A stretch of DNA of 64,000 bases from Candidatus Dojkabacteria bacterium (GTDB lineage Bacteria; Patescibacteriota; Dojkabacteria; J137), in the NCBI GenBank assembly GCA_030950485.1, contig JAUZRK010000005.1, forward strand, positions 4,449 to 68,448. The letters are read 5' to 3'. The stretch's first letter is position 1. Each line of letters starts with the position of its first letter. This document shows, one piece after another, positions 3,599 through 24,320 of this stretch. Below the pieces are notes generated by a model. The model did not search any database. It saw nothing but the letters and a program-made list of their open reading frames with translations, and was not told the origin of the DNA. Both the position numbers and the translations under genes were made by a program.

Positions 3599-4387
3599 AT
3601 GTATACTCATCTAACCTTAAAAATGTTTCAAGATATTGAATATACAATAGTTACAAATTTCTCTGATGACTTCGTTGAATTCACTAAAGGAGTGTCGTTT
3701 TTATCAAAAGAACCAAACTCTGATAAAACCTTAATGTACCAAAATATTGTAGAAAATGGACGTAGGAAACAAATTGCACAAAATTACGATAGAACTCATT
3801 TTGCAGATCCAATTGAGAAAATTCAAGAAGAGGTAAGAGAATCTGATCTAATTATATTTGCGCCCCTTTCACCTTATTATCAAATTGATCATATCAAGGA
3901 TATTCTTTCAGTTAAAAGTAATACTGCAAAATCTTTACTTTTACCGCAGGGATACTTAAGAAAATTCGATAGTAACGGTAATGTATTAGAAAGAGAATTA
4001 GAAGAAGTAGACTTGCTTTTCCCACTATTTGATTTTGGTATCTTATCTGATGAGGACCTGGAAGACTTAAGTCTTATTCCAGAATGGACAAAAAAACATA
4101 AAATCGGTTTAATAGTTACAAGAGGGAAAGATGGAGCTGACGTATACTATGGAGCTGATCTTTTTGATAATGGTGTGAAATATAATGTTTCAACAACACC
4201 TGTTGAGAATATAAAGGACTCAACTGGTTCAGGCGAAATATTTAGTGCAAGTTTTGCTTATATGTATGTAAAGACTAGAGATACTGGGAAAAGTATAGCC
4301 TTTGGAAATAAAGTAGCAGGTAGATGTTTACTTTACTCTCCTAGAGAGTTAGAAAACATGAATTTAGACAAACTATTTAGAAATTAG
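3599..4387 (+). CDS. PfkB-family carbohydrate/nucleoside kinase-like protein; the 5' part appears cut off by an in-frame TGA (see finding)
   Basis: C-terminal PfkB signature 'DSTGSGEIFSASFAY' (DTxGAGD-type). The upstream in-frame segment 3515-3595 encodes MKITVLADVCIDNNRVEGISYKYFGGP, then TGA. Confidence 0.5.
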   Translation: MYTHLTLKMFQDIEYTIVTNFSDDFVEFTKGVSFLSKEPNSDKTLMYQNIVENGRRKQIAQNYDRTHFADPIEKIQEEVRESDLIIFAPLSPYYQIDHIKDILSVKSNTAKSLLLPQGYLRKFDSNGNVLERELEEVDLLFPLFDFGILSDEDLEDLSLIPEWTKKHKIGLIVTRGKDGADVYYGADLFDNGVKYNVSTTPVENIKDSTGSGEIFSASFAYMYVKTRDTGKSIAFGNKVAGRCLLYSPRELENMNLDKLFRN

Positions 4388-4403
4388 TTTACTATCCTTA
4401 TTT

Positions 4404-5336
4404 TCATTTATACCTAATTTCTGAATCATTATCTTTTCCAAAAACTTCATCTAGTTCTTCTTTGATTACAGCTAGATCATTTTCCTCAGAAAATATTGAT
4501 TTTAGAGTTTTTAGGATAGAAGATAAAAATTCTTCATAATCTTGATCTAATAAAGTAGTAGGAAAGAAATCAATCATATACAGAACTTTATTTATAGACC
4601 TTGCAATGATATCTATCGATTCAAATTGTTCTAGCTCAGATACTGAGTAAGCTAGCTCTAACATATCAATTAGTCGTAGATTCAGCAAGTTTCTATCTAA
4701 AATAAATTCTTCAAATTTAACAGCCAAATCTTTACGCCCTAAAAATAATTTTTCGGCTATTCTTATATTTGTATCAAAATCAGTACCTAGTAAGATTTCT
4801 AATTTTTTAATTATAAAACTAGGTCTTAAATAAAAAGGAGGATTAATAGCTAAATCAATATCACCTGATTGAACTACAAAACTATTATCAACCTCTATCT
4901 CTGGTTTGAAATTATAATTATGCAGCTTGCCATCACCAACCTCATCAAAGATAAAGATGTCACTTTCGTCTGCCAATATATTATATACATAAATTAAGTA
5001 TCTATTCGGATCAGATATATAATTTTGTCTAAAGTTCCTATCAAATATCATCATGCTAATTAATCTAGATGTTGCTACGATAGAAGAAGATACTCCATCT
5101 TTAGCGCACCATAAAAGTTTATCTGCATATTTAGGATCAAGTCCGAGTGATATGTCTAAATCAACTTCTACAAAATCTTGAAGTTCAATTTGAGATTTTG
5201 CATAAGTATCTCTCTGTGCTTCAATACTAATTCTGTCTATCACCTCTGCTCGATATAAACGTTTAAGACTACTAGCTGTACTAGTTGAATCATTACGAGT
5301 AAAACTACTTATTTGTGTGAGTATTTTATTTCTCAT
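4404..5336 (-). CDS. Hypothetical protein, 310 aa
   Basis: ORF track. Acidic, no recognisable motif. Its start abuts the stop of the ABC ATPase gene at 5336. Confidence 0.45.
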   Translation of the reverse strand: MRNKILTQISSFTRNDSTSTASSLKRLYRAEVIDRISIEAQRDTYAKSQIELQDFVEVDLDISLGLDPKYADKLLWCAKDGVSSSIVATSRLISMMIFDRNFRQNYISDPNRYLIYVYNILADESDIFIFDEVGDGKLHNYNFKPEIEVDNSFVVQSGDIDLAINPPFYLRPSFIIKKLEILLGTDFDTNIRIAEKLFLGRKDLAVKFEEFILDRNLLNLRLIDMLELAYSVSELEQFESIDIIARSINKVLYMIDFFPTTLLDQDYEEFLSSILKTLKSIFSEENDLAVIKEELDEVFGKDNDSEIRYK

Positions 5337-6319
5337 TAGCTTTTAAAAATATTTCCAATAATATCCTCCAGACTAACTTCAGACACATCTAAATCATCAA
5401 CTGGGAATTTAGCAAGAACATCTCCGGCTATTTTTGTATGAACTTTCCGATCAACAGATAGAGTAGCACTAAAACCAGCACCATCATAGTCGATTACATC
5501 ACCATACTGACTTAGATCTTTCTTTAATACTTTTTTATTAAATATAAACTTAAGATTCTTATGCGAAGCGTATTCTTTAATAAGATTATCAATTGCACCG
5601 TCAAACACTAACCCTCCTTTATTTATAATAATTAATCGGTCACAAAGCTCTTGTACATCATCCATATAATGACTAGTTAGAAGAATTGTATTTTCATGTT
5701 TTTTATTTAGATCAAGAAAAAATTCTCGAATTTTCTTCTGAACTACTATATCAAGTCCAATAGTTGGTTCGTCAAGAAATACAACTTCAGGTTTATGTAG
5801 AAGAGCTGCTAAAAGTTCACACTTCATTCTCTGACCAAGAGAAAGTTTTCTAACTGGAATATCTAAAATATCTTTAGCATCTAACATTTCTGAAAGATAC
5901 TCAACTTGAGTCTTAAATGTTTTATCATTCATTTCATAAATTTCTTTATTCAAGACAAACCCTTCCATAGCTGGAAGATCCCACCAAAGTTGTGATCTCT
6001 GGCCTAAAACAAGTCCAATCTTTTTAAGAAACTCTTTCTTTCTTTTAAATGGTTTATAACCTAAAACTTCAATGATTCCATCAGATGGATAGAGTATTCC
6101 AGAAAGCATTTTTAAAGTTGTTGTTTTACCAGCACTATTTGGTCCTATAAATCCTACCTTTTCTCCTTTTTCAATAGTAAAACTAATATCATCAACAGCC
6201 TTTATATCAAAGTGCTCACGTTTAAAGAGACTCTTCAAAGTACCTTTTAAACCAGCTTCTTTTTTATACTGTTTAAAGTATCTTTTCAAGTTCTGAACTT
6301 TTACTACTGGCTTCGACAT
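5336..6319 (-). CDS. ABC transporter ATP-binding protein
   Basis: Walker A 'GPNSAGKTTTLKML', ABC signature 'LSLGQRMKCELLAAL', Walker B 'VVFLDEPTIGLD'. Confidence 0.85.
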   Translation of the reverse strand: MSKPVVKVQNLKRYFKQYKKEAGLKGTLKSLFKREHFDIKAVDDISFTIEKGEKVGFIGPNSAGKTTTLKMLSGILYPSDGIIEVLGYKPFKRKKEFLKKIGLVLGQRSQLWWDLPAMEGFVLNKEIYEMNDKTFKTQVEYLSEMLDAKDILDIPVRKLSLGQRMKCELLAALLHKPEVVFLDEPTIGLDIVVQKKIREFFLDLNKKHENTILLTSHYMDDVQELCDRLIIINKGGLVFDGAIDNLIKEYASHKNLKFIFNKKVLKKDLSQYGDVIDYDGAGFSATLSVDRKVHTKIAGDVLAKFPVDDLDVSEVSLEDIIGNIFKS

Positions 6320-6477
6320 TTTGAAATTGTAAGATATTAAATATTAAGATCAGATCAGATTGTAAAGTATAAATTTATTTAGCTATGAAAGACAGTAACT
6401 AAGTAATTACCATGCCTTTTGCTTTTTGTATTTTGTATTTTTCCTTTTTCCTTTTTCTTACTTCTTATGTCTTACTT

Positions 6478-7290
6478 CTACCCAACCCCACTATACTTCT
6501 TCAAACCTTTATCCCAAAGTATTTTCGAAATAATATAGAAAATTACTATCATACAGATCTCAACTAAATACACTTCTAAATAAATTTCCCCATCTCTAAA
6601 AAGTTTAGCTGGATAGAATGATACAAAAGCTACTGGAAGGATTACCATCATAGTTACTCTTAGAATTTTATGTAGAGTTCCAAGTGGAATTCTTGCAAAA
6701 TTTTCAATACTTGTTCCGACTAAATCTCTAAACATATGCGCATTATCAATATAAAAAGATAATGAGATAAGAATCAGGTTAACAAAGTAAATTGCAATGA
6801 AACCTAATATGAATATTATAATTGAGTTCAATGAGACAAGTAAGTTAATGTTCTGAGTTCCACTTAACCCGTAGATCGCGAGTGGGATAACTGTAACGAA
6901 CATCGGAATGATTTGGGGAATGCTAACGCTTTTAAATGTAAGTATAAAATACCGGTTTACTGGTTTAGTAAGAATCATATCTAGCTCTCCAGAAATGAGT
7001 TTTTTTGGAAGTTCTCTAAAATTCTTAAAAAATATTATTACAAATAAATATACATAGATTTGTGAAAATACAAGTAGGAGGATCATATCCTTAAATTCCC
7101 AACCTTGAAATGTATCAATCTTAGAAAACAAAAATTTTAAAGATATTAACTGCCCCATAGTCCAAACTATATTTGCAAGTGCACTCATCATTAGATTAAA
7201 CCTATGACTCATAAGTTCAACTATAGAAACCTTTATAAATAATGAATATAGTTTTAGATATCTTTTAATATTATCCATTAGCTGCGTCAT
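6478..7290 (-). CDS. ABC-2 type transporter permease (polytopic membrane protein)
   Basis: Multiple hydrophobic helices, in an operon with the ATPase. The ATPase-plus-two-permease layout resembles the COG4586/COG4587/COG3694 family. Confidence 0.55.
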   Translation of the reverse strand: MTQLMDNIKRYLKLYSLFIKVSIVELMSHRFNLMMSALANIVWTMGQLISLKFLFSKIDTFQGWEFKDMILLLVFSQIYVYLFVIIFFKNFRELPKKLISGELDMILTKPVNRYFILTFKSVSIPQIIPMFVTVIPLAIYGLSGTQNINLLVSLNSIIIFILGFIAIYFVNLILISLSFYIDNAHMFRDLVGTSIENFARIPLGTLHKILRVTMMVILPVAFVSFYPAKLFRDGEIYLEVYLVEICMIVIFYIISKILWDKGLKKYSGVG

Positions 7291-8828: not shown

Positions 8829-9380
8829 TTACTTTTTATTCTCTATTGCCAACTCCTTAGCCTTCTTAATCGCTCTATTTTGTAATACTTTTACATTTCC
8901 AACTGTTGTCTCCATAATTTTTGCCGTTTCTTTAAGAGAGTAGTTTAACAAAAATCTTAACTCTAATACTTCTTTATATCTTGGTTTTAATGATCCAAGT
9001 AATGCCTTTATTATTTTCTCATTTTCGACTTTCGACTTTTGACTTTCATTGTCTTCTGTTTCATTATTCTCGTCTCTCAAGTAATCTAAATTTTCATCAT
9101 CAACCAAAGCTGTTTTGTCTTTACTCTTATACCAATCATAAACAAGATGTTTTCCAATCGTATACAACCACGATTTAAAACTTGAATTTCCCTTAAAGTT
9201 CTCTAACTTCTCAAATGCTCTTAGAAAGCTCTCAGACACTATATCTTCAGCTCTTTCATTTGTATTGACCTTGTGTCTTACAAAAATATATAGGCTCTTA
9301 AAGTGCTCTCTATAAAGTTTTTCACGAGATTTTGAATCTCCATTTTTTGCTTTTTCAATAACTCTCTTTTCGAAGAGCAT
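8829..9380 (-). CDS. ECF-type sigma-70 family sigma factor
   Basis: Region 2 'AEDIVSESFLRAFEKLENFKG...FKSWLYTIGKHLVYDWYK' and region 4 'LKETAKIMETTVGNVKVLQNRAIKKAKEL'. Confidence 0.75.
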   Translation of the reverse strand: MLFEKRVIEKAKNGDSKSREKLYREHFKSLYIFVRHKVNTNERAEDIVSESFLRAFEKLENFKGNSSFKSWLYTIGKHLVYDWYKSKDKTALVDDENLDYLRDENNETEDNESQKSKVENEKIIKALLGSLKPRYKEVLELRFLLNYSLKETAKIMETTVGNVKVLQNRAIKKAKELAIENKK

Positions 9381-9616
9381 TTTACTATACTGTTAATAAT
9401 TTAGACTAAAAAGGTTACACAGAAAACATATTTTTTCTCAAGGGTTATATTTAAAATCAAAGACAAGTTATTTTTATGAATTTAGAAAAAAGTAATTTAT
9501 AGTAACTATTCACCAACTAACATATCAATGTATTTACTACTGTATTTACTACTGTATTACCTTTATCTTATGCCTTATATCTTATGTCTTATGCCTTACT
9601 TCTTACTTTCTACTTT

Positions 9617-10324
9617 TCACTTCCTACCCCACTCATACAACCCAATCCCAACAGACACTGCTAAATTAAATGAATCAATATTTTCCGATTGAGGAATTTT
9701 TATAACCTCTCCTATTTTTAAAAGTTCTTCAGGAACTCCAAATGATTCAGCTCCAAAGAGCAGAGTAGAAGGCTTTTTAAATGTTACTGTATCAATATTC
9801 TTTTCAGTTCTTGAGTCAAAGATGTAAATATTTTCTCTATTAGATAAATATTTCTCAACATCTAAGACCAACTCTATATTCATTTTAAAAATCCCTCCCA
9901 TTGAACTTCTAATAACTTTTGGATTAAAAATATCAACAGCAGGTTCAACCAAAGCAATATTACTAATTCCAAACCCTAGTGCAGTTCTTATTATTGTTCC
10001 AATATTCCCGTAATCAGATGGATTATATAAAACTAAGTGTGTCTCATTTTGATTTAACTTTGACTCAAACTTATTGAATATTCCTATAAAGTAAGTATTT
10101 TCTTTTTCAGAAAGATCCTTAATTTGCCTATCTGCTTCTATAAAGTCTATATTAAACTTTATACATAGATTTTTAATTATCACAAAAGCTTCAGATTCAA
10201 CTGAAGCTGAACTATAAATAATTTTCACTATTTCACTAGGCTTATTATTTACTAATTCAATTGTAGGATAAGCACCTAATGTGTAAGAGTATTGTAATTT
10301 CTTCTTATATTTACTAAACTTCAC
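9617..10324 (-). CDS. SpoU/TrmH-family RNA 2'-O-methyltransferase
   Basis: SPOUT motifs 'LVLYNPSDYGNIGTIIRTALGFGI' and 'PKVIRSSMGG'. Ends with a TGA stop. Confidence 0.8.
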   Translation of the reverse strand: MKFSKYKKKLQYSYTLGAYPTIELVNNKPSEIVKIIYSSASVESEAFVIIKNLCIKFNIDFIEADRQIKDLSEKENTYFIGIFNKFESKLNQNETHLVLYNPSDYGNIGTIIRTALGFGISNIALVEPAVDIFNPKVIRSSMGGIFKMNIELVLDVEKYLSNRENIYIFDSRTEKNIDTVTFKKPSTLLFGAESFGVPEELLKIGEVIKIPQSENIDSFNLAVSVGIGLYEWGRK

Positions 10325-10964: not shown

Positions 10965-13900
10965 TTAGTTTATAGTTCTAGCTATAAATGTATTACTAGT
11001 TAAATCATAGTTATTAAAATCAAATGTATCATTTAGAGTAACTGGTATCTTTTGGTTTACATATTTACTAGAAATATGATTAATAGTCATTGAATAGTTT
11101 GATATAGCTCCAGTATTTCCTGGTACTAATACATATTTAAACCCTTTCTTCTCTGCCATCTTAGCAGTTTCATCTAAAAACCATTCTATAAAGTTATCAA
11201 TTGGTATACTTTCCTCATCCGGGTAGTTGAACCCCCTAACTAACAGCGCTTTAGAACCGTCATTTAAAGTTACCTCAAATAAGAGTACTGATCCATCAAG
11301 CTTAAGTTCCCCTTGACCTCTTTCGCCTTCTCTTACAAATTTAAATGGTATAACCTTATGATTAGGGTTATCTATTAGAGGGTAAACACCTGTATAACAT
11401 ACATCTGCAACATATCCTGACAATTCTCCTACCAATCCTAAATCTGGTATTACTTTTACTGCTCGCTTATCTCCTGTTTCAAATTGTCTCATTTCTTCGA
11501 CAGATGCTTTGAATGTTGTTAATTCTTTTTCATATGATTCTAGAACAGTAGATCTTCTCTTCCTATTTTGAGCACCAGAGAGTTCCTTCAAAAATTTGTC
11601 ACTCCAATAAGAACGGATTTCCTTATATTCTTCATCTTCTATCTTTTCTTCATCAAGAGGCTCATTCGGAAATTTAAATACATGATTATTACCTTGTTCA
11701 TTTAGTAGATTTATAATAGAAAGTACTGCATTAGGACTTATTTCTTCATCTTGAAGAGCAATCCTTAAATTATCTATCATGTCTTCATCTCCCTGAAGAG
11801 ACTCTATTAATTTAGTAAATAAACTCCTTCTTATAATTCTATTCTGAACATCTGAATCTGCCTTACCAAATTTAAGATCTGATACTAGCATTATTATATC
11901 TTCAATATCAGAGAGTGATTCTAATTCTTTTTTACGACTTTCGTATTCATCTATTTGTTTTCTTAAAAATATATCTTTCTTTTCAGTACCAGTTTGACTT
12001 AAGGTGCTTTCTAATATTGAAACCTTTTCAGCTATATATAGATCTATACCCTCTAATATATAATTTAAATCATCTCCATTTTCTAAAACAGCCAAATAAT
12101 CATCAGCTATTATATTAAATTCTTCTACAATCCCACTAGGATCAAACATCGTAGCAACTTCACTATCTGTAAAACTCATTTTATAATAACCTTTATAGTC
12201 AGCTCTATTTAATTGTCGCTGATTAAAATCTGATAGTATAGTTTCAAAAGATATTCTCCCTAAACTAAATCTATGTGTATCGTATCCTGTAGCCTGACGT
12301 AAAAAGATTTTATCTATTTCAGTTAGTTTTTCAATCTCCTCTGGCTGAATTTCTTTAGCTGATAATATTCTATTTTTCATACTAGTACCAGCTTGAAAAA
12401 ATTCTTCTGTAGTTTGAAGCTGAAATCGCTTTATCTCGTCTGAGAGTTCATAAGTCCCATTTAACTTTTCATATCTGTATATCTCTTTTAATACTCTGAA
12501 TAAAGCAGGGGACCTTGACAGACCAAGCCTACTGACAAACATAGTCAAGACTTCAATGTCCTCATCTGTTGCTTCAAAGTTACTTTCCTCTTCATTAAGT
12601 AAATATACAATTAGATTTGCAGTTCTATCGTATGCGTTTTGAGTAAAAGCATTTCTTCTCTTCTGATTCGAAATTGGTAGAGCTGAAAGAAATTTCTCAG
12701 CAGCCTCTTCGCCGTATAGTGTCCCAAAACTCTTCTTGCTCATAAGTTTGAAAGTCTCCTCTTTATCAAATTCTAAATACCTTAACATTAATTCCCTAGT
12801 TTCTTCGCCTTCAAATAAAAGACCGTCTATATCATCTATTCTACTAATCCAGTAATCTTTTATTTTCTCTGGTATCCTTCCAATATAGTCAGATACTTGA
12901 TGATTATTATCAATTCTATGAATAAAATTTTTAACGTTATTTAAATAATCTTCTGATAATTCGCCATCTATTAAATATTTAAATATATTTGTGTTTAATC
13001 TATTGATAGATTTATTTTGAGAATTTTGTATATATGCTCCTAATTCAGTAAGGTCATCTAGTTTTGTATACTCAACTAACCTTTCCCAATCTTCAGAAGT
13101 AAGACTTTCAATTAAAGAATTCTCATTTGAGAATGCTTGAAGAAATTCTATATTCTCTACTAAAACATTTACTTCTCCATACCTAGAACCAAATGCTATT
13201 AAGTGCTTAATAGTATTACTTTGTAATTTTTCATTTCGAGCAACTTCCTTCAAATCTGACACTGGTAATTTTCGAAGATCTAAGTTTGCAGCGCTAAGTC
13301 TCCTAGCTATATTCTCACGAGTCTCCAGTGGAATCTCATTATTATATAAAATATCTAGTATTTTAGAAGTTCCGTCTTCAAGACTTGAGATATACCCTAA
13401 AATATTAGGAGAATTGGAGATATCTTGTAGAATTTTTAGCTCTCTTTTTGCTTGCCAAATTTCTTTGTATTCTACGCTATTAGCTTCAATGTCTTTTACT
13501 CTTAATTCTAATTCAGCTCTTGCAGAATTTAATTCTCCAAGATTTTTTAATAGGAATTCTATATCGGCATCCTTTGTATACTCAAATACTTGATCGATAT
13601 TTCTCTTTGTTTTAAATACATCTTCAAGACCTAATTCCAAAATTAATTTTGCAGTTTCTTCCAAATTACTTGAATTTGAAGTAGGCATAATTATCTTCAA
13701 TGCTACTTCCAAGGTCTGAAGGTTAGCGTCTTCTATTCTCTCAGAATAAGAATTTGCATTACTCTTTGATCTCAAGCTGGTAAATAAATCTGGTAAAGCA
13801 TTAGATAAAGTTTGCTTAATCTTTATACCTAAGTCCTTATCAACTCCATCTATAAATGTTAAAAGTGACCAAATTTGATCATCTGAGCCACCAATATCTT

Positions 13901-14186
13901 TTAATGTTTTATTTAAAGTCTTCTCTAAATCAGTTGTACTAAACCGAAGTCTTAGGTCAGTAAATTGACGTCTTATACTCGACATAAACTCAGTATCTTC
14001 ATCACCAATATCAGTCCCAAAAATTTCTTGAATCAATCCATCTATTTGAGGTTCATCAATTTTGATATGTGGAATTATTCTTGAGAAATCACCATATTGA
14101 GAGTTATTTAACAGCATATTAATCATACCTCTACTACTAAGTTTAATCTCACTATTATCTTCTGAAATATAAAAGTCTAAAAACAA
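10965..14186 (-). CDS. Very large hypothetical protein (1073 aa), mostly acidic and helical, with a distinct about 170-aa C-terminal domain
   Basis: Uninterrupted 3.2-kb ORF. No signal peptide, TM segment, Walker or other motif I recognise. The C-terminal segment 'GYVADVCYTG...NPNHKVIPF...LVPGNTGAISNY' is compositionally distinct from the rest. Confidence 0.6.
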   Translation of the reverse strand: MFLDFYISEDNSEIKLSSRGMINMLLNNSQYGDFSRIIPHIKIDEPQIDGLIQEIFGTDIGDEDTEFMSSIRRQFTDLRLRFSTTDLEKTLNKTLKDIGGSDDQIWSLLTFIDGVDKDLGIKIKQTLSNALPDLFTSLRSKSNANSYSERIEDANLQTLEVALKIIMPTSNSSNLEETAKLILELGLEDVFKTKRNIDQVFEYTKDADIEFLLKNLGELNSARAELELRVKDIEANSVEYKEIWQAKRELKILQDISNSPNILGYISSLEDGTSKILDILYNNEIPLETRENIARRLSAANLDLRKLPVSDLKEVARNEKLQSNTIKHLIAFGSRYGEVNVLVENIEFLQAFSNENSLIESLTSEDWERLVEYTKLDDLTELGAYIQNSQNKSINRLNTNIFKYLIDGELSEDYLNNVKNFIHRIDNNHQVSDYIGRIPEKIKDYWISRIDDIDGLLFEGEETRELMLRYLEFDKEETFKLMSKKSFGTLYGEEAAEKFLSALPISNQKRRNAFTQNAYDRTANLIVYLLNEEESNFEATDEDIEVLTMFVSRLGLSRSPALFRVLKEIYRYEKLNGTYELSDEIKRFQLQTTEEFFQAGTSMKNRILSAKEIQPEEIEKLTEIDKIFLRQATGYDTHRFSLGRISFETILSDFNQRQLNRADYKGYYKMSFTDSEVATMFDPSGIVEEFNIIADDYLAVLENGDDLNYILEGIDLYIAEKVSILESTLSQTGTEKKDIFLRKQIDEYESRKKELESLSDIEDIIMLVSDLKFGKADSDVQNRIIRRSLFTKLIESLQGDEDMIDNLRIALQDEEISPNAVLSIINLLNEQGNNHVFKFPNEPLDEEKIEDEEYKEIRSYWSDKFLKELSGAQNRKRRSTVLESYEKELTTFKASVEEMRQFETGDKRAVKVIPDLGLVGELSGYVADVCYTGVYPLIDNPNHKVIPFKFVREGERGQGELKLDGSVLLFEVTLNDGSKALLVRGFNYPDEESIPIDNFIEWFLDETAKMAEKKGFKYVLVPGNTGAISNYSMTINHISSKYVNQKIPVTLNDTFDFNNYDLTSNTFIARTIN

Positions 14187-14276
14187 ATCATCAAAATTAA
14201 TTTCTAGACTTCCCCTCTCATCAGTCTTTACATAACTATCAAAAAAATACTAATATCTATATTACTTTTTTCATTT

Positions 14277-16061
14277 TCAGCATAGTAAAGTAACATCTTT
14301 ATTTGCTAATCCATTCAGCGCTTTATGCAGTCCACTTCTATTTAAATGTATATCACTTCCGTCTTCACTCAAAACAAAGTCCGGCTCATTTATATCATTT
14401 ACAATATGTGGGATGTATCTAGATAAGTTAGAATTATTTACTCTTTCATAAAGTATCACTCTTTCTAATCCAACAGACTCACTTACACTCTCGTCAAAGA
14501 AAGGCTGAAGTCCCATTAATGAATAATAATCAACTTCATCAGAATCTAAATAAACACTAATCTGACCTCTAACCTCATTAATTATCTCTGCTGATAAAAC
14601 GTCTGTAATAGGCCTATCATCATTATATTTATAACTTAATAAACCAGTATACCTATCGTAACCATCAGCCATATGACTTAGTTCACTTTTAAGAATGAAT
14701 TCTACGCCTCCTTCTCTGATTTGTTCTAATACTATGTCATGAACACTACTATCAATCTTTATAGGTTTTTTAGAGTATGGCGCGTTTTCTATTACAGACT
14801 TAAGTATCCTTTTAGACAAATCAGCCCTTACTTTGCCACTCTCTGTAAATCTTTCTCCAATAAAATCTGGAAGAGAAGAGAACCCAGATTCAATTACTTT
14901 CCCTAAAAGACTATTGTTAACATATATCTTATATCCAAATTGATCATTTAAATCTGCTGATCCTCCAGTAAATAAATATTCAAACTCATCATCACTAAGA
15001 GCTGTAATACGATATTTTATTGAATCAGGGAAATTAATCTCTAATTCTGTACAATAATTCACTATTACACCAAGGTCAGATCTGTGTATTTGATCAGCTT
15101 TAATTTGTGCTTCTAAGAAGTTTCTTACTTCTGGTTGAAGTCTATTAAAATCTCCATTTGTCTTATGAATAGCAGCTAAGATGACATTCGCAGAAGCTTT
15201 TGATTCTTCCGAAATTTCTGGGATATCTGTAGTTATCTGTTCCCACATTGGTCCATTTTCTCCTATACTCTTGCCTGAAGAAATTATTATGGATAATGCA
15301 TTATCATAAGTATCATCACTAATTGCATCTATTGAGAAAAGTTCATCAGCTTCAGACAATGCTTCATTATTCTGAGAATTAGCTACCAGAGCTACTAACT
15401 CTATTGAATCATGTTTAGCTAGTGTTATCGGCTTTGAAGCGACTTCAGATCTAATTTTGATAGAATCATCGCTAGTGTCTTTTATAATTTGCGCTGCTAG
15501 TGGATTAACCTCCTTTCCTTCTTTTAAGTTTATATAAGCTATGGCGTTCGCAATAGATCTTTTAGCAATGACTTCATTCTGTATTTCTAAATCTTGTTTT
15601 TCAGCTCTTCGAAATCTTAAACTTGAGGATTTAAACTCTTCAAAGTCTTGATCTGATATCTCTGGTAATAGACCGACAAATCTATCGCTCTCAAGTAACT
15701 CAGCTAACTGTACGGCATCATCACCATCAAGACTGTTATGGTACAAGTTTTTATTTATAAATCCGAAAAAATTAACTTTACCAGTGTTTGTTAAATGATC
15801 AAATAACTCCTCTCTAAATATAGAATCATTTACAATTGTAGATTTATCATTTTCGCCCCTAACATCTCTAAGAAATGATAGAACCCTAATAGCAACTCGT
15901 GTAGAAGCATTAAATAAATTTGCGTTTTGCCCCTGAACAGATCGTCTTAACTTTACTTCTAATATGTCGCTACTTTGTAAAGCTGTATTATCTGTTTGAG
16001 GTTGAATATCTAAAGTCTCATCTTCAGTATTTTGAACATTAGTATTATTATCTTCAGACAT
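14277..16061 (-). CDS. Large hypothetical protein (594 aa), acidic, co-oriented with the downstream 1073-aa gene
   Basis: Uninterrupted 1.8-kb ORF, 90 bp upstream of the 1073-aa gene on the same strand. No recognisable motif. Confidence 0.6.
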   Translation of the reverse strand: MSEDNNTNVQNTEDETLDIQPQTDNTALQSSDILEVKLRRSVQGQNANLFNASTRVAIRVLSFLRDVRGENDKSTIVNDSIFREELFDHLTNTGKVNFFGFINKNLYHNSLDGDDAVQLAELLESDRFVGLLPEISDQDFEEFKSSSLRFRRAEKQDLEIQNEVIAKRSIANAIAYINLKEGKEVNPLAAQIIKDTSDDSIKIRSEVASKPITLAKHDSIELVALVANSQNNEALSEADELFSIDAISDDTYDNALSIIISSGKSIGENGPMWEQITTDIPEISEESKASANVILAAIHKTNGDFNRLQPEVRNFLEAQIKADQIHRSDLGVIVNYCTELEINFPDSIKYRITALSDDEFEYLFTGGSADLNDQFGYKIYVNNSLLGKVIESGFSSLPDFIGERFTESGKVRADLSKRILKSVIENAPYSKKPIKIDSSVHDIVLEQIREGGVEFILKSELSHMADGYDRYTGLLSYKYNDDRPITDVLSAEIINEVRGQISVYLDSDEVDYYSLMGLQPFFDESVSESVGLERVILYERVNNSNLSRYIPHIVNDINEPDFVLSEDGSDIHLNRSGLHKALNGLANKDVTLLC

Positions 16062-16159
16062 ATATTAATCTTGATGATACTCCATCTTAATTAATATCAT
16101 TCTTAAGATCAATGTATTTGAATAAATATTAAATATGTTTAGATTTATTTAAAAAAATA

Positions 16160-17338
16160 TTATTCTTTTCTTGCAGCATATAATCCAAACATACTTCCAA
16201 ATAGCGCTAAGATAAATGTAGAGATAATTGCTATAGAAAGTGAATAGTCACTTTTTAAAATTCCATACCCCATCATGTAGATAAAAAGTAATCCTCTAGA
16301 AAGTAATGACTGCATAGAAAGAATTGTCGAGCGCATAGAAGACTCAATTCGATCATTAGTAAACTGGCCAATTGCAATTCTACTAACTGTGTCTAAGATA
16401 CCAATTATTATTGCAACGAGAATTATTATAAATAACGAGTTTATTAATTGAAATAGTATTATCAAAGGAGTTGTAATAGCTGTAAATTTTATTAGTTTAT
16501 TTATTTTTATTATTTTTTTAAACTTCTTTAAAAGGATAGCGCCAATGGCTCTTCCTATTATTATTAAAGTACAATAAGACCAATCTGACTTTGCTTAAAA
16601 CTATAATCTTCTGAGACTACCTGTATAACCGATTTTGCAGATATAAAAATAGACGAGAAAACTACATAATGAGTTGTGATTTTAAACAAACCATTTTTAA
16701 CTGCTTTTTTAGAAATCAATTCTTTTAAGCTAGATAGAGTATGTCTTAAATAGTTACTATCTTGAATCTCCCTAGCTTTCTTTGTAATATCCGGCTCTTT
16801 TACAAAAAGGATTATCAAGGACGATAATAAGTAGAAAAATATCGGTAACCCTAAAGTAGCTCTTAAGTTATATTGTCCTATAATTCCACCTATCAAAGTA
16901 TATAAAGCAGAGGTTGCAAACGAGATTAGTAATACGTTATTCATAACCTTCTTATAATTCGCCTCATTATTCTCCTGCTTTAATGAATCATAAATAAGCG
17001 CAGTATCCGCTCCAGAGTTTAAACTTAATCCAAGTGCTGAAAAGGCTACTGATACTAATAGGAATAAGTAACTGTCATTTACCATTAATGAAAAATATCA
17101 TGGCAATCATATTTGATAAACCTCCTAAGTATAATGAAAGTTTACGAGATACTTTATCCGCAATTACTCCAGTTGGAACTTCAAATAATAGAACCATTAA
17201 TGAAAAAGTTCCTACAGCACTTAGCGCCTGAACCTCTGTAAATGATTTATATTTAGTTAAATATGGAATAAGAGTAGCAAACCAAAACGTTGGAGTAGAA
17301 AATATGTTGAATAGATAGATTAATTTTATATTTTTCAT
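16160..17338 (-). pseudogene. MFS-type transporter disrupted by two frameshifts
   Basis: Three consecutive minus-strand ORFs (17075-17338, 16564-17085, 16160-16465) are all polytopic-membrane in character. I traced a frame change at about 17080 (…FFINGK* / VNDSYLF…) and another at about 16560 in a TTATTATTA run (…QIGLIVL* / IIIGRAIGAILL…). Confidence 0.55.
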
Positions 17339-17480: not shown

Positions 17481-18647
17481 TTGATGGAACTCTCAAAAGA
17501 TCAAGACAAAGCACTTAAAGAAATTCTTAAATGGTTTAAAAACCCTTCTAGATCTAATTATATAACACTAGGTGGTTATGCAGGAACTGGTAAAACAACA
17601 TTAGTTTCACTACTACGAGAAGAACTAAGAAAGGAGCATAAAAACTTATCTGTTTCATTTTGTAGCTATACTGGAAAAGCAACTAGAGTTCTTGAAGATA
17701 AACTAAGAGAAAGTAAATCAATTTTAAACCAAGATACAGTAAGTACAATTCACTCTTTAATCTACTCTACAATTACAAATGCTAAAGAAGAAATTATTGG
17801 TTGGGAAAGAAAAAGAGAAGTTGGTAGTGATCTTATAATTGTAGATGAAGCTTCAATGGTAGATAGTAGAATTTGGAATGATCTAAGTTCTTTTGGAATT
17901 CCAATACTAGCAGTTGGAGATCATGGACAATTACCTCCAATAAGCGGAAGTTTTAATCTAGTTGAAAAGCCAATGATAAAATTAGAGGAGATACATAGAC
18001 AGGCAAAAGAAAACCCGATAATAGAGCTCTCAATTCAAGCAAGAAAAGAGGGAAAAATTGATCCCGGTCACTATAGCGGCAATGTAATAAAACTTAGAAG
18101 GTCTGATGAAGACTCAAGAGAAATGTTTTCAGAACTTCTCCAAAATTCAAATAATGATTCATTAGTACTATGTGGATATAACCATACAAGAGTGAAACTT
18201 AATAAATTTATTAGAGATTCTTTGGAGTACGAAACAAGCACACCTGAGTTTGGAGATAGAGTGATTTGCCTAAGAAATAACCATCAGAAAGGTATTTTTA
18301 ACGGGATGCATGGAAACATAAAAAAAATCACTAGCCATAATAATGGCTGGTATAACGCTGAGATCGAAATGGATGGGGATGATAAACGTTTTAAAGGATT
18401 AATTTCAAAAGATCAATTTAATAATCCACAGTCTTTAAACTTCACTGAAGAAAGAGGGAGATATATGGATGGGGATCTTTTTGACTTTGGATACGCGATT
18501 ACAGTCCATAAAGCTCAGGGTAGTCAAGCTAATAGAGTAGTATTGTTTGAAGAGCGTTTTAAACAAATGACCGATAAAATGTGGAAGAGATGGCTTTATA
18601 CTGCAGTTACAAGAGCTGAATCTGAGTTGTATATTTTAGGTGATTAG
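17481..18647 (+). CDS. SF1B RecD/Dda-like ATP-dependent DNA helicase (short form)
   Basis: Walker A 'GGYAGTGKTTL', motif II 'LIIVDEASMVD', 'AVGDHGQLPP', C-terminal 'AITVHKAQGSQANRVVL' and 'YTAVTRAESELYILG'. Confidence 0.8.
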   Translation: MMELSKDQDKALKEILKWFKNPSRSNYITLGGYAGTGKTTLVSLLREELRKEHKNLSVSFCSYTGKATRVLEDKLRESKSILNQDTVSTIHSLIYSTITNAKEEIIGWERKREVGSDLIIVDEASMVDSRIWNDLSSFGIPILAVGDHGQLPPISGSFNLVEKPMIKLEEIHRQAKENPIIELSIQARKEGKIDPGHYSGNVIKLRRSDEDSREMFSELLQNSNNDSLVLCGYNHTRVKLNKFIRDSLEYETSTPEFGDRVICLRNNHQKGIFNGMHGNIKKITSHNNGWYNAEIEMDGDDKRFKGLISKDQFNNPQSLNFTEERGRYMDGDLFDFGYAITVHKAQGSQANRVVLFEERFKQMTDKMWKRWLYTAVTRAESELYILGD

Positions 18648-18651
18648 GAAT

Positions 18652-19713
18652 TTACAATTCAGGATTATTGACAATCTTATGTAAATCTTCTGGGATATCC
18701 TGGAACTCAATTCCCAATCTATAGAGTAAATAATCTGTCTTAGATTTTAAACCTCTGATAATTTGAAAAAATCTACCCTTTTTAAAACTTTCTAAATAAT
18801 TAGAGAATGTCCAATCTAACCTTAGTTTTGGATCATTCATATTGTTACTATTAAATACTAATTCTAGGAGTGTATACATTCCATTACTTATTTCCACCAT
18901 TGCAGTCTTACCGTCAGAAGCTTGCATTAACATTATATACCCAGCATTTTTAGGGAAATCTATTATAGTACTAACATTTGACTTATTCATATCGATAATA
19001 CAGAAATCTAGGCTCTCATTTACATAAAACGAACCTTTAAACTTGGGTTGTCTTAAAAGCACATGCCCCATATAACTAAGTGTTTCTACTGCTAATAAGT
19101 TTCTAATCCTTCTTTCCCGGGGATTCATACTATAAAGCTGTGGAAAGATATAAGTTCTTATTATAGCTATTTCTCTATATTTATAATCTCCATACAGTGC
19201 ATATCCAATATCTGACAATCCCGTTGTTTGCCTAATATCAAAAATATTTCTTATCCCGTCTAGTTCAAAACACTTTGTAAACATATCGTAAGCATGCGTA
19301 TTATTAGTCTCTACTATATTTCTTGCTACAAGCATCTGTTTATCTAAATAGAAACCTGATTCTACAAATAGTCTGAAAGATAGATACTGCGTTTCGTTTT
19401 CGAATAAAACAACTTCACTTAATGACTCATCAGCATTGCTTATAAAACAGTAGTATGTAGAGGGTATACCAGAATTTGAAACTATTTTTGGAATATCAGG
19501 AAATGCTATTTTAAAGTCAGTATCTGGAATATTTATACCAGCAGGTAGATAATCTAAGTCTTCATCATATTCTAAAATATCGAGTTTAGTCTGCTTAATA
19601 ATTCTATCCCGTGCAGAGTTTTTAGCCTTATCGCTAACTTCATCAATTTCATAAGAATTAACTAAAGTTATTCCTCTTGCAGCCGTTACAGTTCTATCTG
19701 GTCTGTAAAACAC
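18652..19713 (-). CDS. Hypothetical protein, convergent with the helicase; the reading frame stays open upstream to about 19967 (see finding)
   Basis: The ORF track starts at a GTG. By manual translation the same frame is open for about 85 more codons upstream with no start codon. An ATG at 19965-19967 is in the +1 frame and joins that frame across a TATATAT run. Confidence 0.5.
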   Translation of the reverse strand: MFYRPDRTVTAARGITLVNSYEIDEVSDKAKNSARDRIIKQTKLDILEYDEDLDYLPAGINIPDTDFKIAFPDIPKIVSNSGIPSTYYCFISNADESLSEVVLFENETQYLSFRLFVESGFYLDKQMLVARNIVETNNTHAYDMFTKCFELDGIRNIFDIRQTTGLSDIGYALYGDYKYREIAIIRTYIFPQLYSMNPRERRIRNLLAVETLSYMGHVLLRQPKFKGSFYVNESLDFCIIDMNKSNVSTIIDFPKNAGYIMLMQASDGKTAMVEISNGMYTLLELVFNSNNMNDPKLRLDWTFSNYLESFKKGRFFQIIRGLKSKTDYLLYRLGIEFQDIPEDLHKIVNNPEL

Positions 19714-23815: not shown

Positions 23816-24320
23816 TGGCAGATTCATTTGAAGAAACACAGACCCCTGCAGAAGTATTAGATGTTAAAAGTAAAATGCTCCTGTAGTAGTAGGAGAGTTC
23901 AGAAGAGAGTTTAATAACAGTAGAGAAGATGCTGGTGCTAAAGATTTACCTAAGATTAATGTAATGCGTGAACCATATAGTAAGTATGAAGAAGCTCATA
24001 AAGAGATTTATACAATTTATAATGGTGCTAGAGAAAAATATGTAAATGCTGCAGGCCTTGTCAGAAATGGTTTAAGTGAAAAAAAATGGGAATTTAGCTA
24101 TTACAAACCATTCTGATATGAGATTTATGCTTACTGAGTGTATTAATGAATACAAAAAGTCTGGATTTCCAAAAACTGCTGGAGAACTTGATAATATGCA
24201 AACTAGAGTTGCTTTAATTAGTTTTAATAATCTTGTAGATTGAAAAGATGAGTTAATAGGAGTTACAGAGGGTAGAGATGTTTTAGAAAACGAGCTCACT
24301 GAACCAGAAGCTTTAATCTA
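23816..24320 (+). pseudogene. Decayed gene relic: four collinear ORF pieces in three frames separated by stops
   Basis: Manual translation gives MADSFEETQTPAEVLDVKSKMLL*, then APVVVGEFRREF…SYYKPF*, then DMRFMLTECINEYKKSGFPKTAGELDNMQTRVALISFNNLVD*, then KDELIGVTEGRDVLENELTEPEALI*, consecutive on the plus strand. Confidence 0.4.

Follow-up and report, generated by a model that had tools for sequence, protein, structure and literature searches.

The DNA examined here, hereafter the window, is a stretch of 64,000 nucleotides from a Candidatus Dojkabacteria bacterium (GenBank assembly GCA_030950485.1, contig JAUZRK010000005.1), and our subject is a pair of large, co-oriented open reading frames (ORFs) on its minus strand, which we call big1 and big2. 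The gene big2 (14277-16061) starts with ATG and encodes 594 amino acids (aa), big1 (10965-14186) starts with TTG and encodes 1073 aa, and the two are separated by a 90-bp spacer (14187-14276) that holds four in-frame stop codons and a Shine-Dalgarno (SD)-like motif, GAGAGGGGA. Inspection of the sequence revealed a possible alternative start of big1 at M24 (14115-14117), 9 nt downstream of AGAGGT. An earlier note on this DNA had given the pair exactly these positions and lengths and had described both products as acidic, without a transmembrane (TM) segment and without any recognisable signature. This description held: the isoelectric points are 4.69 for big1 and 4.56 for big2, the maximal Kyte-Doolittle hydrophobicity over 19 residues is so low (1.14 and 0.78, respectively) that we assign a TM segment to neither, and scans of Pfam and NCBIfam returned no match for either protein. 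The GC content is ~0.29-0.32 across the pair and equal to that of the flanking DNA, in which respect big1 is a native gene, and promoter and terminator scans of the locus gave signals at background level.

The earlier note had also regarded both large proteins as orphans, a view that fails for the 1073-aa protein. An exhaustive HMMER search of big1 against 1.84 billion cluster representatives, in which relatives were counted at E≤1e-3, recovered 230 of them (104 at E≤1e-30, the best at 7e-99), and wherever a source is named, the relative is a 'hypothetical protein' of Patescibacteria, also known as the Candidate Phyla Radiation (CPR), including Falkowbacteria, Parcubacteria and Shapirobacteria. 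Mostly 1,100-1,650 aa long, with a few giants of 3,000-7,400 aa, these proteins align to residues ~430-1073 of big1, at the extreme C-terminus of the target, and the similarity is significant over this full core, which places big1 in an unnamed, CPR-wide family. A word-indexed search of 5.8 billion proteins, by comparison, found only big1 itself and overlooked all 230 relatives, which calls for caution in reading its negatives; repeated with an alignment of 88 sequences, it was dominated by non-homologous N-terminal columns and yielded a single new match.

Pattern scans located the family at 34 loci in GTDB representative genomes and at 30 metagenome loci, where its ORFs are 1,015-1,600 aa long, giants aside. 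Among the GTDB loci, titles that name a lineage almost always point to CPR (Falkow-, Parcu-, Davies-, Magasanik-, Shapiro-, Sacchari- and Peribacteria, and Microgenomates), the remainder being recorded as 'uncultured Gammaproteobacteria', 'Micrarchaeota' or plain 'bacterium'. The records with non-CPR titles, TPA binchicken metagenome-assembled genomes (MAGs) found among loci L005, L008-L010, L012, L022-L024 and L026-L028, look CPR-like in gene content and GC, and the Gammaproteobacteria and Micrarchaeota titles on family-bearing records are probably automated mislabels. In length big1 fits other short-form members of 1015, 1046, 1072 and 1074 aa (range 1015-1075), and it is a complete and probably functional member of the family; the metagenome scan contained nothing closer to it than ~52% identity in the C-terminal module described below. 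Pfam detected no domain in any of seven homologs, and a description of the family did not turn up in our literature search. Pfam, NCBIfam and the PDB contain neither the family nor its architecture or non-canonical set of motifs, while the fold class of its C-terminal part, described below, is already known.

Several members stand apart from the ordinary form. One giant (P0073, 4,616 aa) carries a VanY D-Ala-D-Ala carboxypeptidase domain at residues 724-817, and two others, P0063 and P0093 (7,303 and 2,101 aa), begin with a TM or signal-like segment. Tandem family paralogs of 1293 and 1407 aa occupy one locus (L013, 721-~8900), two family copies lie 5 kb apart in another (L003, 6020-10495 and 15340-18987), and a third carries a copy split into 331 and 779 aa (L026, ~3600-6945).

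An AlphaFold2 (AF2) model of big1, built with a multiple sequence alignment of 63 sequences, together with the family alignment, divides the protein into three regions. The first (residues 1-430; 12897-14186, minus strand) is all-helical and lineage-specific: its helices are modelled at a predicted local distance difference test score (pLDDT) of 45-70, its alignment occupancy is ~0.5 and its top-residue frequency ~0.27, and neither phmmer nor jackhmmer detected similarity between it and the N-termini of the homologs. Over residues 430-1073, by contrast with this region, pLDDT lies mostly between 90 and 98, and conservation, negligible at 1-430, is high from ~450 and maximal at 901-950 (mean top-residue frequency 0.63). 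The second region, a conserved helical core domain (residues 431-897; 11496-12896, minus strand), bears polar, strongly conserved motifs, including ALP..(T)DE.RNAF.HN.YDRT (~503-523), THRF..GR (~637-644) and K.H.LN...YW (H835, W861). The PDB holds nothing that resembles this domain significantly in structure or sequence; fold searches with the full-length model returned alpha-solenoid matches for the helical part only at an insignificant E≥0.08, and a PDB sequence search with the family profile found nothing significant. A Fic-like reading of THRF..GR was rejected, as the motif is unlike HxFx[DE]GNGR, its His is less than 90% conserved and it does not match the Pfam Fic model. The description of big1 as largely helical therefore applies up to about residue 897, after which the model becomes alpha/beta; this third region (residues 898-1073; 10968-11495, minus strand) is a C-terminal module with a fold like that of the GNAT (acyl-CoA N-acyltransferase) superfamily.

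All columns that are invariant in the 88 aligned family members (C930, P947, G965, R984, F1057 and N1058) fall within this module, as do the near-invariant D915, E921, Y925, Y931, K949, S1029, N1030 and Y1031; in the helical domain D520, R511 and H835 (87 of 88) are near-invariant. All six invariant columns are kept in big1, along with the near-invariant D520, H835, E921, Y925, K949 and N1030. The codon of C930 (11397-11399, minus strand) specifies the sole cysteine of big1, and this residue is present in 88 of 88 members. The earlier note had singled out the last ~170 aa of big1 as a distinct module with conserved-looking Cys and His positions, and of this the module stands, at 898-1073, as does the Cys, represented by the invariant C930; the His part does not, since no His is conserved in the module and the nearly invariant H835 belongs to the helical domain.

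The module comprises 176 aa, and its secondary structure elements follow the order β1-α1/α2-β2-β3-β4-α3-β5-α4-β6, which is the GNAT topology, in the AF2 models, with pLDDT above 90 in the second of them. When the module model was compared with the PDB in Foldseek, 49 of the top 50 matches were GNAT acyltransferases (probability 0.9-1.0, E 5e-3 to 6e-2, TM-score 0.45-0.5), among them GmvT, AtaT, TacT, KacT, HP0935, Gcn5/PCAF, NAA60/80 and the regulatory domain of ICL2, and local GNAT matches were obtained again with the full-length second model, both in the PDB and in the BFVD library of viral structures. Structure prediction, which the earlier note had proposed for this C-terminus, thus gave a GNAT-like answer, albeit at weak TM-scores. 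The loop between β4 and α3, where GNAT enzymes bear the canonical Q/R-x-x-G-x-G/A motif, reads R984-G-F-N-Y-P-D-E991 in big1 (11214-11237, minus strand); the family consensus at this position is R-[AG]-F-D-x-P-x-E, with R984 invariant, P989 and E991 conserved, and the glycines missing.

Enzymes of the GNAT superfamily take up acyl-CoA and pass its acyl group on to an amine. From the predicted fold and the pattern of conservation we consider the chances slightly better than even that big1, as a member of an undescribed patescibacterial family, catalyses acyl transfer, or a transfer related to it, in the cytoplasm. A cytoplasmic location is suggested by the lack of TM segments in big1 and big2 and by the finding that, among 138 Met-initiated members, a hydrophobic N-terminus occurs in only two. 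In such an enzyme the GNAT-like domain would carry out the chemistry via the invariant C930, R984 and N1058 and the near-invariant E921, Y925, K949 and S1029-N1030-Y1031, and C930 might form a thioester intermediate or make a key contact with the ligand. A substrate that all these bacteria share would bind to the conserved helical domain (D520, R511, H835), and contacts specific to each lineage would fall to the variable N-terminus. Since the loop that normally receives the CoA pyrophosphate is replaced, the acyl group may come from a non-canonical donor. A bolder version, which we regard as rather improbable, would make the family a new patescibacterial enzyme class with a GNAT fold from which the canonical CoA loop was lost, in which the invariant Cys, possibly together with H835, would transfer an acyl group, or an aminoacyl group, to a conserved macromolecule of the cell, for example one belonging to the ribosome, the tRNAs or the envelope, while the N-terminus and big2 would tune lineage- or host-specific targets.

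Several observations weigh against the enzymatic interpretation. The GNAT assignment comes from predicted structure only, and the best Foldseek E-value lies above 1e-3 at TM-scores of ~0.45-0.5; Pfam gave no GNAT-clan match at E≤10 for big1 or for 41 module sequences, and searches of PDB sequences with the module, the module profile and the family profile found no GNAT. Replacement of the motif A glycines by R-G-F-[DN]-x-P-x-E, which moreover sets a conserved acidic residue into the CoA-pyrophosphate loop, makes canonical use of acyl-CoA doubtful. Furthermore, big1 alone among the 88 members has Leu where the IPDRG motif carries its near-invariant R916 (81 R, 2 K; codon 11439-11441, minus strand), and gene context yields no clue to the substrate, a conserved neighbour being missing. 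Finally, GNAT-like domains can be non-catalytic, and the regulatory domain of ICL2 is among the matches.

This last point leads to an explanation in which the module is a ligand-sensing or protein-binding domain, similar to that of ICL2, mounted on a large helical scaffold. The missing canonical motif A and the recurrence of the ICL2 GNAT-like domain among the structural matches are in keeping with it, as is the remainder of big1, an alpha-solenoid-like scaffold without an enzyme signature. What speaks against it is the pattern of conservation within the module, where the invariant C930, R984 and N1058 and the near-invariant E921, Y925, K949 and Ser-Asn-Tyr residues are more typical of an active site, and where the invariance of the sole cysteine is hard to explain by scaffolding alone. 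We therefore consider a non-catalytic module unlikely, if worth bearing in mind, and retain acyl transfer as the preferred function.

The earlier note had proposed the pair as candidate host-interaction factors. Under this reading both proteins would be exported or exposed at the surface, and the C-terminal module would act on an episymbiont's host cell. Consistent with such a role, the N-terminal regions are hypervariable between lineages, as would be expected of fast-evolving interaction surfaces, and the family includes a few giants of 3,000-7,400 aa, one of them with the VanY cell-wall peptidase domain, as well as the two proteins (P0063 and P0093) with an N-terminal TM or signal-like segment; in addition, the GNAT toxins AtaT, TacT, KacT and GmvT are among the top structural matches of the module. 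Yet 136 of the 138 members, big1 among them, lack an N-terminal hydrophobic segment, as does big2, and conservation runs opposite to that of polymorphic toxins, with a conserved, catalytic-looking C-terminus behind a variable N-terminus. Across the compared loci we found no conserved neighbour or immunity- or antitoxin-like gene beside the family genes: the recurrent neighbours are housekeeping-like (GAPDH, LigA, CorA and SmpB, judged by eye from their sequences) and are common to close relatives only, and the large ones are of mixed kinds (pilin-like, SMC-like and DnaE-like, judged by their N-termini). Likewise, PADLOC gave no match for big1 or big2, PHROG gave a single weak one (helicase, E=0.002), and no family relative was present in the IMG/VR viral contigs. 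The strong conservation of the core across many CPR lineages from diverse habitats suggests instead an internal, shared substrate. Taken together, the effector proposal found no positive evidence and is, in our opinion, improbable.

Each of three more specific readings failed at least one defining feature. A type II toxin-antitoxin system was rejected because the module terminates proteins of 1,000-7,000 aa instead of forming one of ~150-180 aa and no partner gene was found, big2 being unsuited to the partner's part with its 594 aa and no antitoxin-type domain. A polymorphic toxin was rejected in view of the reversed conservation pattern and of the lack of a conserved downstream gene, and an anti-phage defence or phage protein in view of the PADLOC, PHROG and viral contig results.

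The proteins of the pair are also annotated in a Candidatus Dojkabacteria MAG in the NCBI collection (GCA_030949735.1, contig JAUZSD010000003.1), and this record, 99.1% identical to the window over 20 kb and so not the same as it, bears on the integrity of the big1 frame. A base-by-base comparison showed that in the region of the pair the two differ at a single base: a run of A at 13861-13864 counts four in the window (T4 on the coding strand, codons ~108-109) and five in the NCBI assembly, where it causes a frameshift that cuts big1 into products of 115 and 972 aa (Q9M91_01015 and Q9M91_01010). Within the window, the frame stays open through the 108 codons that precede the run, and given that off-frame stops occur here at 0.10-0.16 per codon, the probability of such openness by chance is ~1e-5 or less. 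These codon statistics indicate that the intact frame of 1073 aa is the real coding frame, in which case the version with five A reflects an error or else a lesion of very recent origin. The assumption of the earlier note that the ORFs are unsplit thus applies to the window, where the frame is intact, and not to the public assembly.

Elsewhere the two assemblies differ in further places. A tandem repeat with a 12-nt unit, TGTATTTACTAC, is present in 2.5 copies in the window (9529-9558), between the gene of an ECF-type sigma factor (8829-9380) and that of a SpoU methylase (9617-10324), and is longer by 36 bp (three units) in the NCBI assembly; additional short repeats continue beyond the TGTATTTACTAC array up to 9627. 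Against the final 1.5 kb of the NCBI contig, the segment 5481-6992 shows many indels and mismatches, suggestive of misassembly at the contig end or of strain variation, and three more single-base indels lie at 24300, 25735 and 25778, of which two fall in homopolymers of T and C.

For big2 the label of orphan has so far been upheld, by methods less sensitive than those applied to big1. The word-indexed search of 5.8 billion proteins, the same that missed all relatives of big1, returned only big2 itself; Pfam, NCBIfam, PADLOC, PHROG and PDB sequences gave no match; no link to the N-termini of the family emerged from phmmer, a repeat HMM or a jackhmmer search started from 94 homolog N-termini; and neither BLAST against the neighbours of the family genes nor tblastn against 64 related loci gave a match. 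These homolog, neighbour and locus searches likewise linked nothing to residues 1-430 of big1. We thus treat big2, provisionally, as a protein without relatives, and the best explanation is that it is lineage-specific. The spacer between the two genes contains no terminator-like site, and we infer that big2 is probably co-transcribed with big1.

The proximity of the two genes raises the alternative that they are halves of one ancestral long-form gene (~1,700 aa), split in evolution or by an assembly artefact. They share strand and reading frame and lie only 90 bp apart, and their joint length (594+1073 aa) is only a little greater than the ~1,650 aa that ordinary members reach at most; a split copy is known from another locus (L026, 331+779 aa), and since the N-termini of the family are non-homologous between lineages, the missing homologs of big2 do not count against a common origin. 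The junction region (14100-14460) moreover holds a pair of short motifs, NNS..SR.IPHI..EP and DF..SED.S.I.L..G, found at the end of big2 and again, the other way round, at the start of big1. At BLASTP E=0.08, however, this likeness is weak, and it is not accompanied by a repeat at the DNA level, and a shared frame has a prior of one in three. The spacer itself carries, within 13 codons, four in-frame stops that represent all three kinds (TGA, TGA, TAA and TAG) as well as the SD-like GAGAGGGGA, which is not what a single recent nonsense mutation or sequencing slip would leave behind, and it is identical in both assemblies, while big1 alone already matches the short-form members in length and architecture. 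We accordingly view fission of one gene as possible but not favoured, and place its probability low. Stop-codon reassignment across the gap was rejected too, the gap holding TGA, TAA and TAG alike. Our preferred account is still of two genes, of which big1 is a short-form family member and big2 a lineage-specific companion.

Directly upstream of the pair, on the minus strand (16160-17338), lie the remains of a transporter gene of the major facilitator superfamily (MFS), in three fragments (17338-17075, 17085-16564 and 16594/16465-16160) whose frames run 2, 0 and 2. The Pfam model MFS_1 matches fragments 1 and 2, and MFS-type NCBIfam models match fragments 1 and 3; each fragment alone falls below the Pfam gathering threshold, and together they cover, as the known MFS_1 transporters do uninterrupted, ~400 aa. 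The earlier note's claim of two frameshifts in this gene proved correct: the first lies within 17097-17078, which includes a T5 run, and the second within 16594-16567, a little upstream of the TAATAATAA run given in the note. The ORF is hence broken twice, with profile coverage spread over three fragments. Both frameshifts are present in GCA_030949735.1 as well, an agreement that is not independent confirmation because the two assemblies may derive from the same reads. Stop-codon reassignment does not account for the breaks, as the fragments lie in different frames. Unless the frameshifts are assembly errors, the best explanation is a decaying pseudogene unrelated to the pair. The two shifts cancel each other, so that the first and last fragments are in one frame, an outcome of about even odds by chance for two ±1 indels.

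Divergent from this pseudogene, on the plus strand (17481-18647), is the gene of a RecD-like SF1 helicase (AAA_30, UvrD_C_2), which matches the PADLOC candidate PDC-M16A at 1e-44 and typeIV_RecD at 2e-33; as other defence components were not found nearby, its product is probably a generic RecD2-type helicase. It is followed by another uncharacterised ORF (18652-19713, minus strand; 353 aa, or 433 aa from stop to stop) with no match in Pfam, PADLOC or PHROG and no paralog within the window.

A large part of bacterial diversity belongs to the Patescibacteria, and most of their conserved lineage-specific proteins lack an assigned function. Uncharacterised conserved families of this kind are common in CPR genomes, and the function given here is a prediction. 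What was supposed to be an orphan is now a defined family with clear boundaries. Its core of 640 aa has been modelled with high confidence, and the list of its invariant residues is short, with a single Cys among them that lends itself to direct mutation. Acyl transfer by a non-canonical GNAT domain has thereby become a concrete biochemical hypothesis, and the family could be registered as a new domain family.

Among known systems, the closest in fold are the members of the GNAT superfamily (AtaT/TacT/KacT/GmvT, Gcn5/PCAF, NAA60 and NAA80), with which the big1 module shares the predicted order of strands and helices, an Arg, here invariant, at the first position of motif A, and a conserved Asn and Tyr after β5. 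It differs from them in having no profile relationship to them, in the missing glycines of motif A and in the invariant Cys of the α1-α2 region. Whereas GNAT toxins and enzymes are stand-alone proteins of ~160 aa, the module of the big1 family terminates proteins of 1,000-7,000 aa that have no antitoxin-like neighbour. Combination of a GNAT unit with a large helical partner is known from NatA, in which Naa15 and Naa10 provide, on two polypeptides, a large helical scaffold of TPR repeats and a GNAT catalytic unit. The likeness to big1 is one of architecture: NAA60 and NAA80 are among the matches of the module, whereas for the helical part no similarity in sequence, and none of significance in structure, was found (alpha-solenoid matches only at E≥0.08).

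A departure from the canonical acyl donor also has a precedent. FemX/FemABX and Leu/Phe-tRNA-protein transferase possess a GNAT-like fold without Q/RxxGxG/A and use aminoacyl-tRNA as donor; they serve here by analogy only, being outside the top 50 structural matches of the module and showing no sequence similarity to it. Lastly, in ICL2 of M. tuberculosis (PDB 6edz/6ee1) the GNAT-like domain likewise forms the C-terminus of a larger multidomain protein. There, it binds acetyl-CoA allosterically and accompanies a catalytic lyase domain, whereas in big1 it follows an uncharacterised helical domain and itself carries the active site-like invariant residues.

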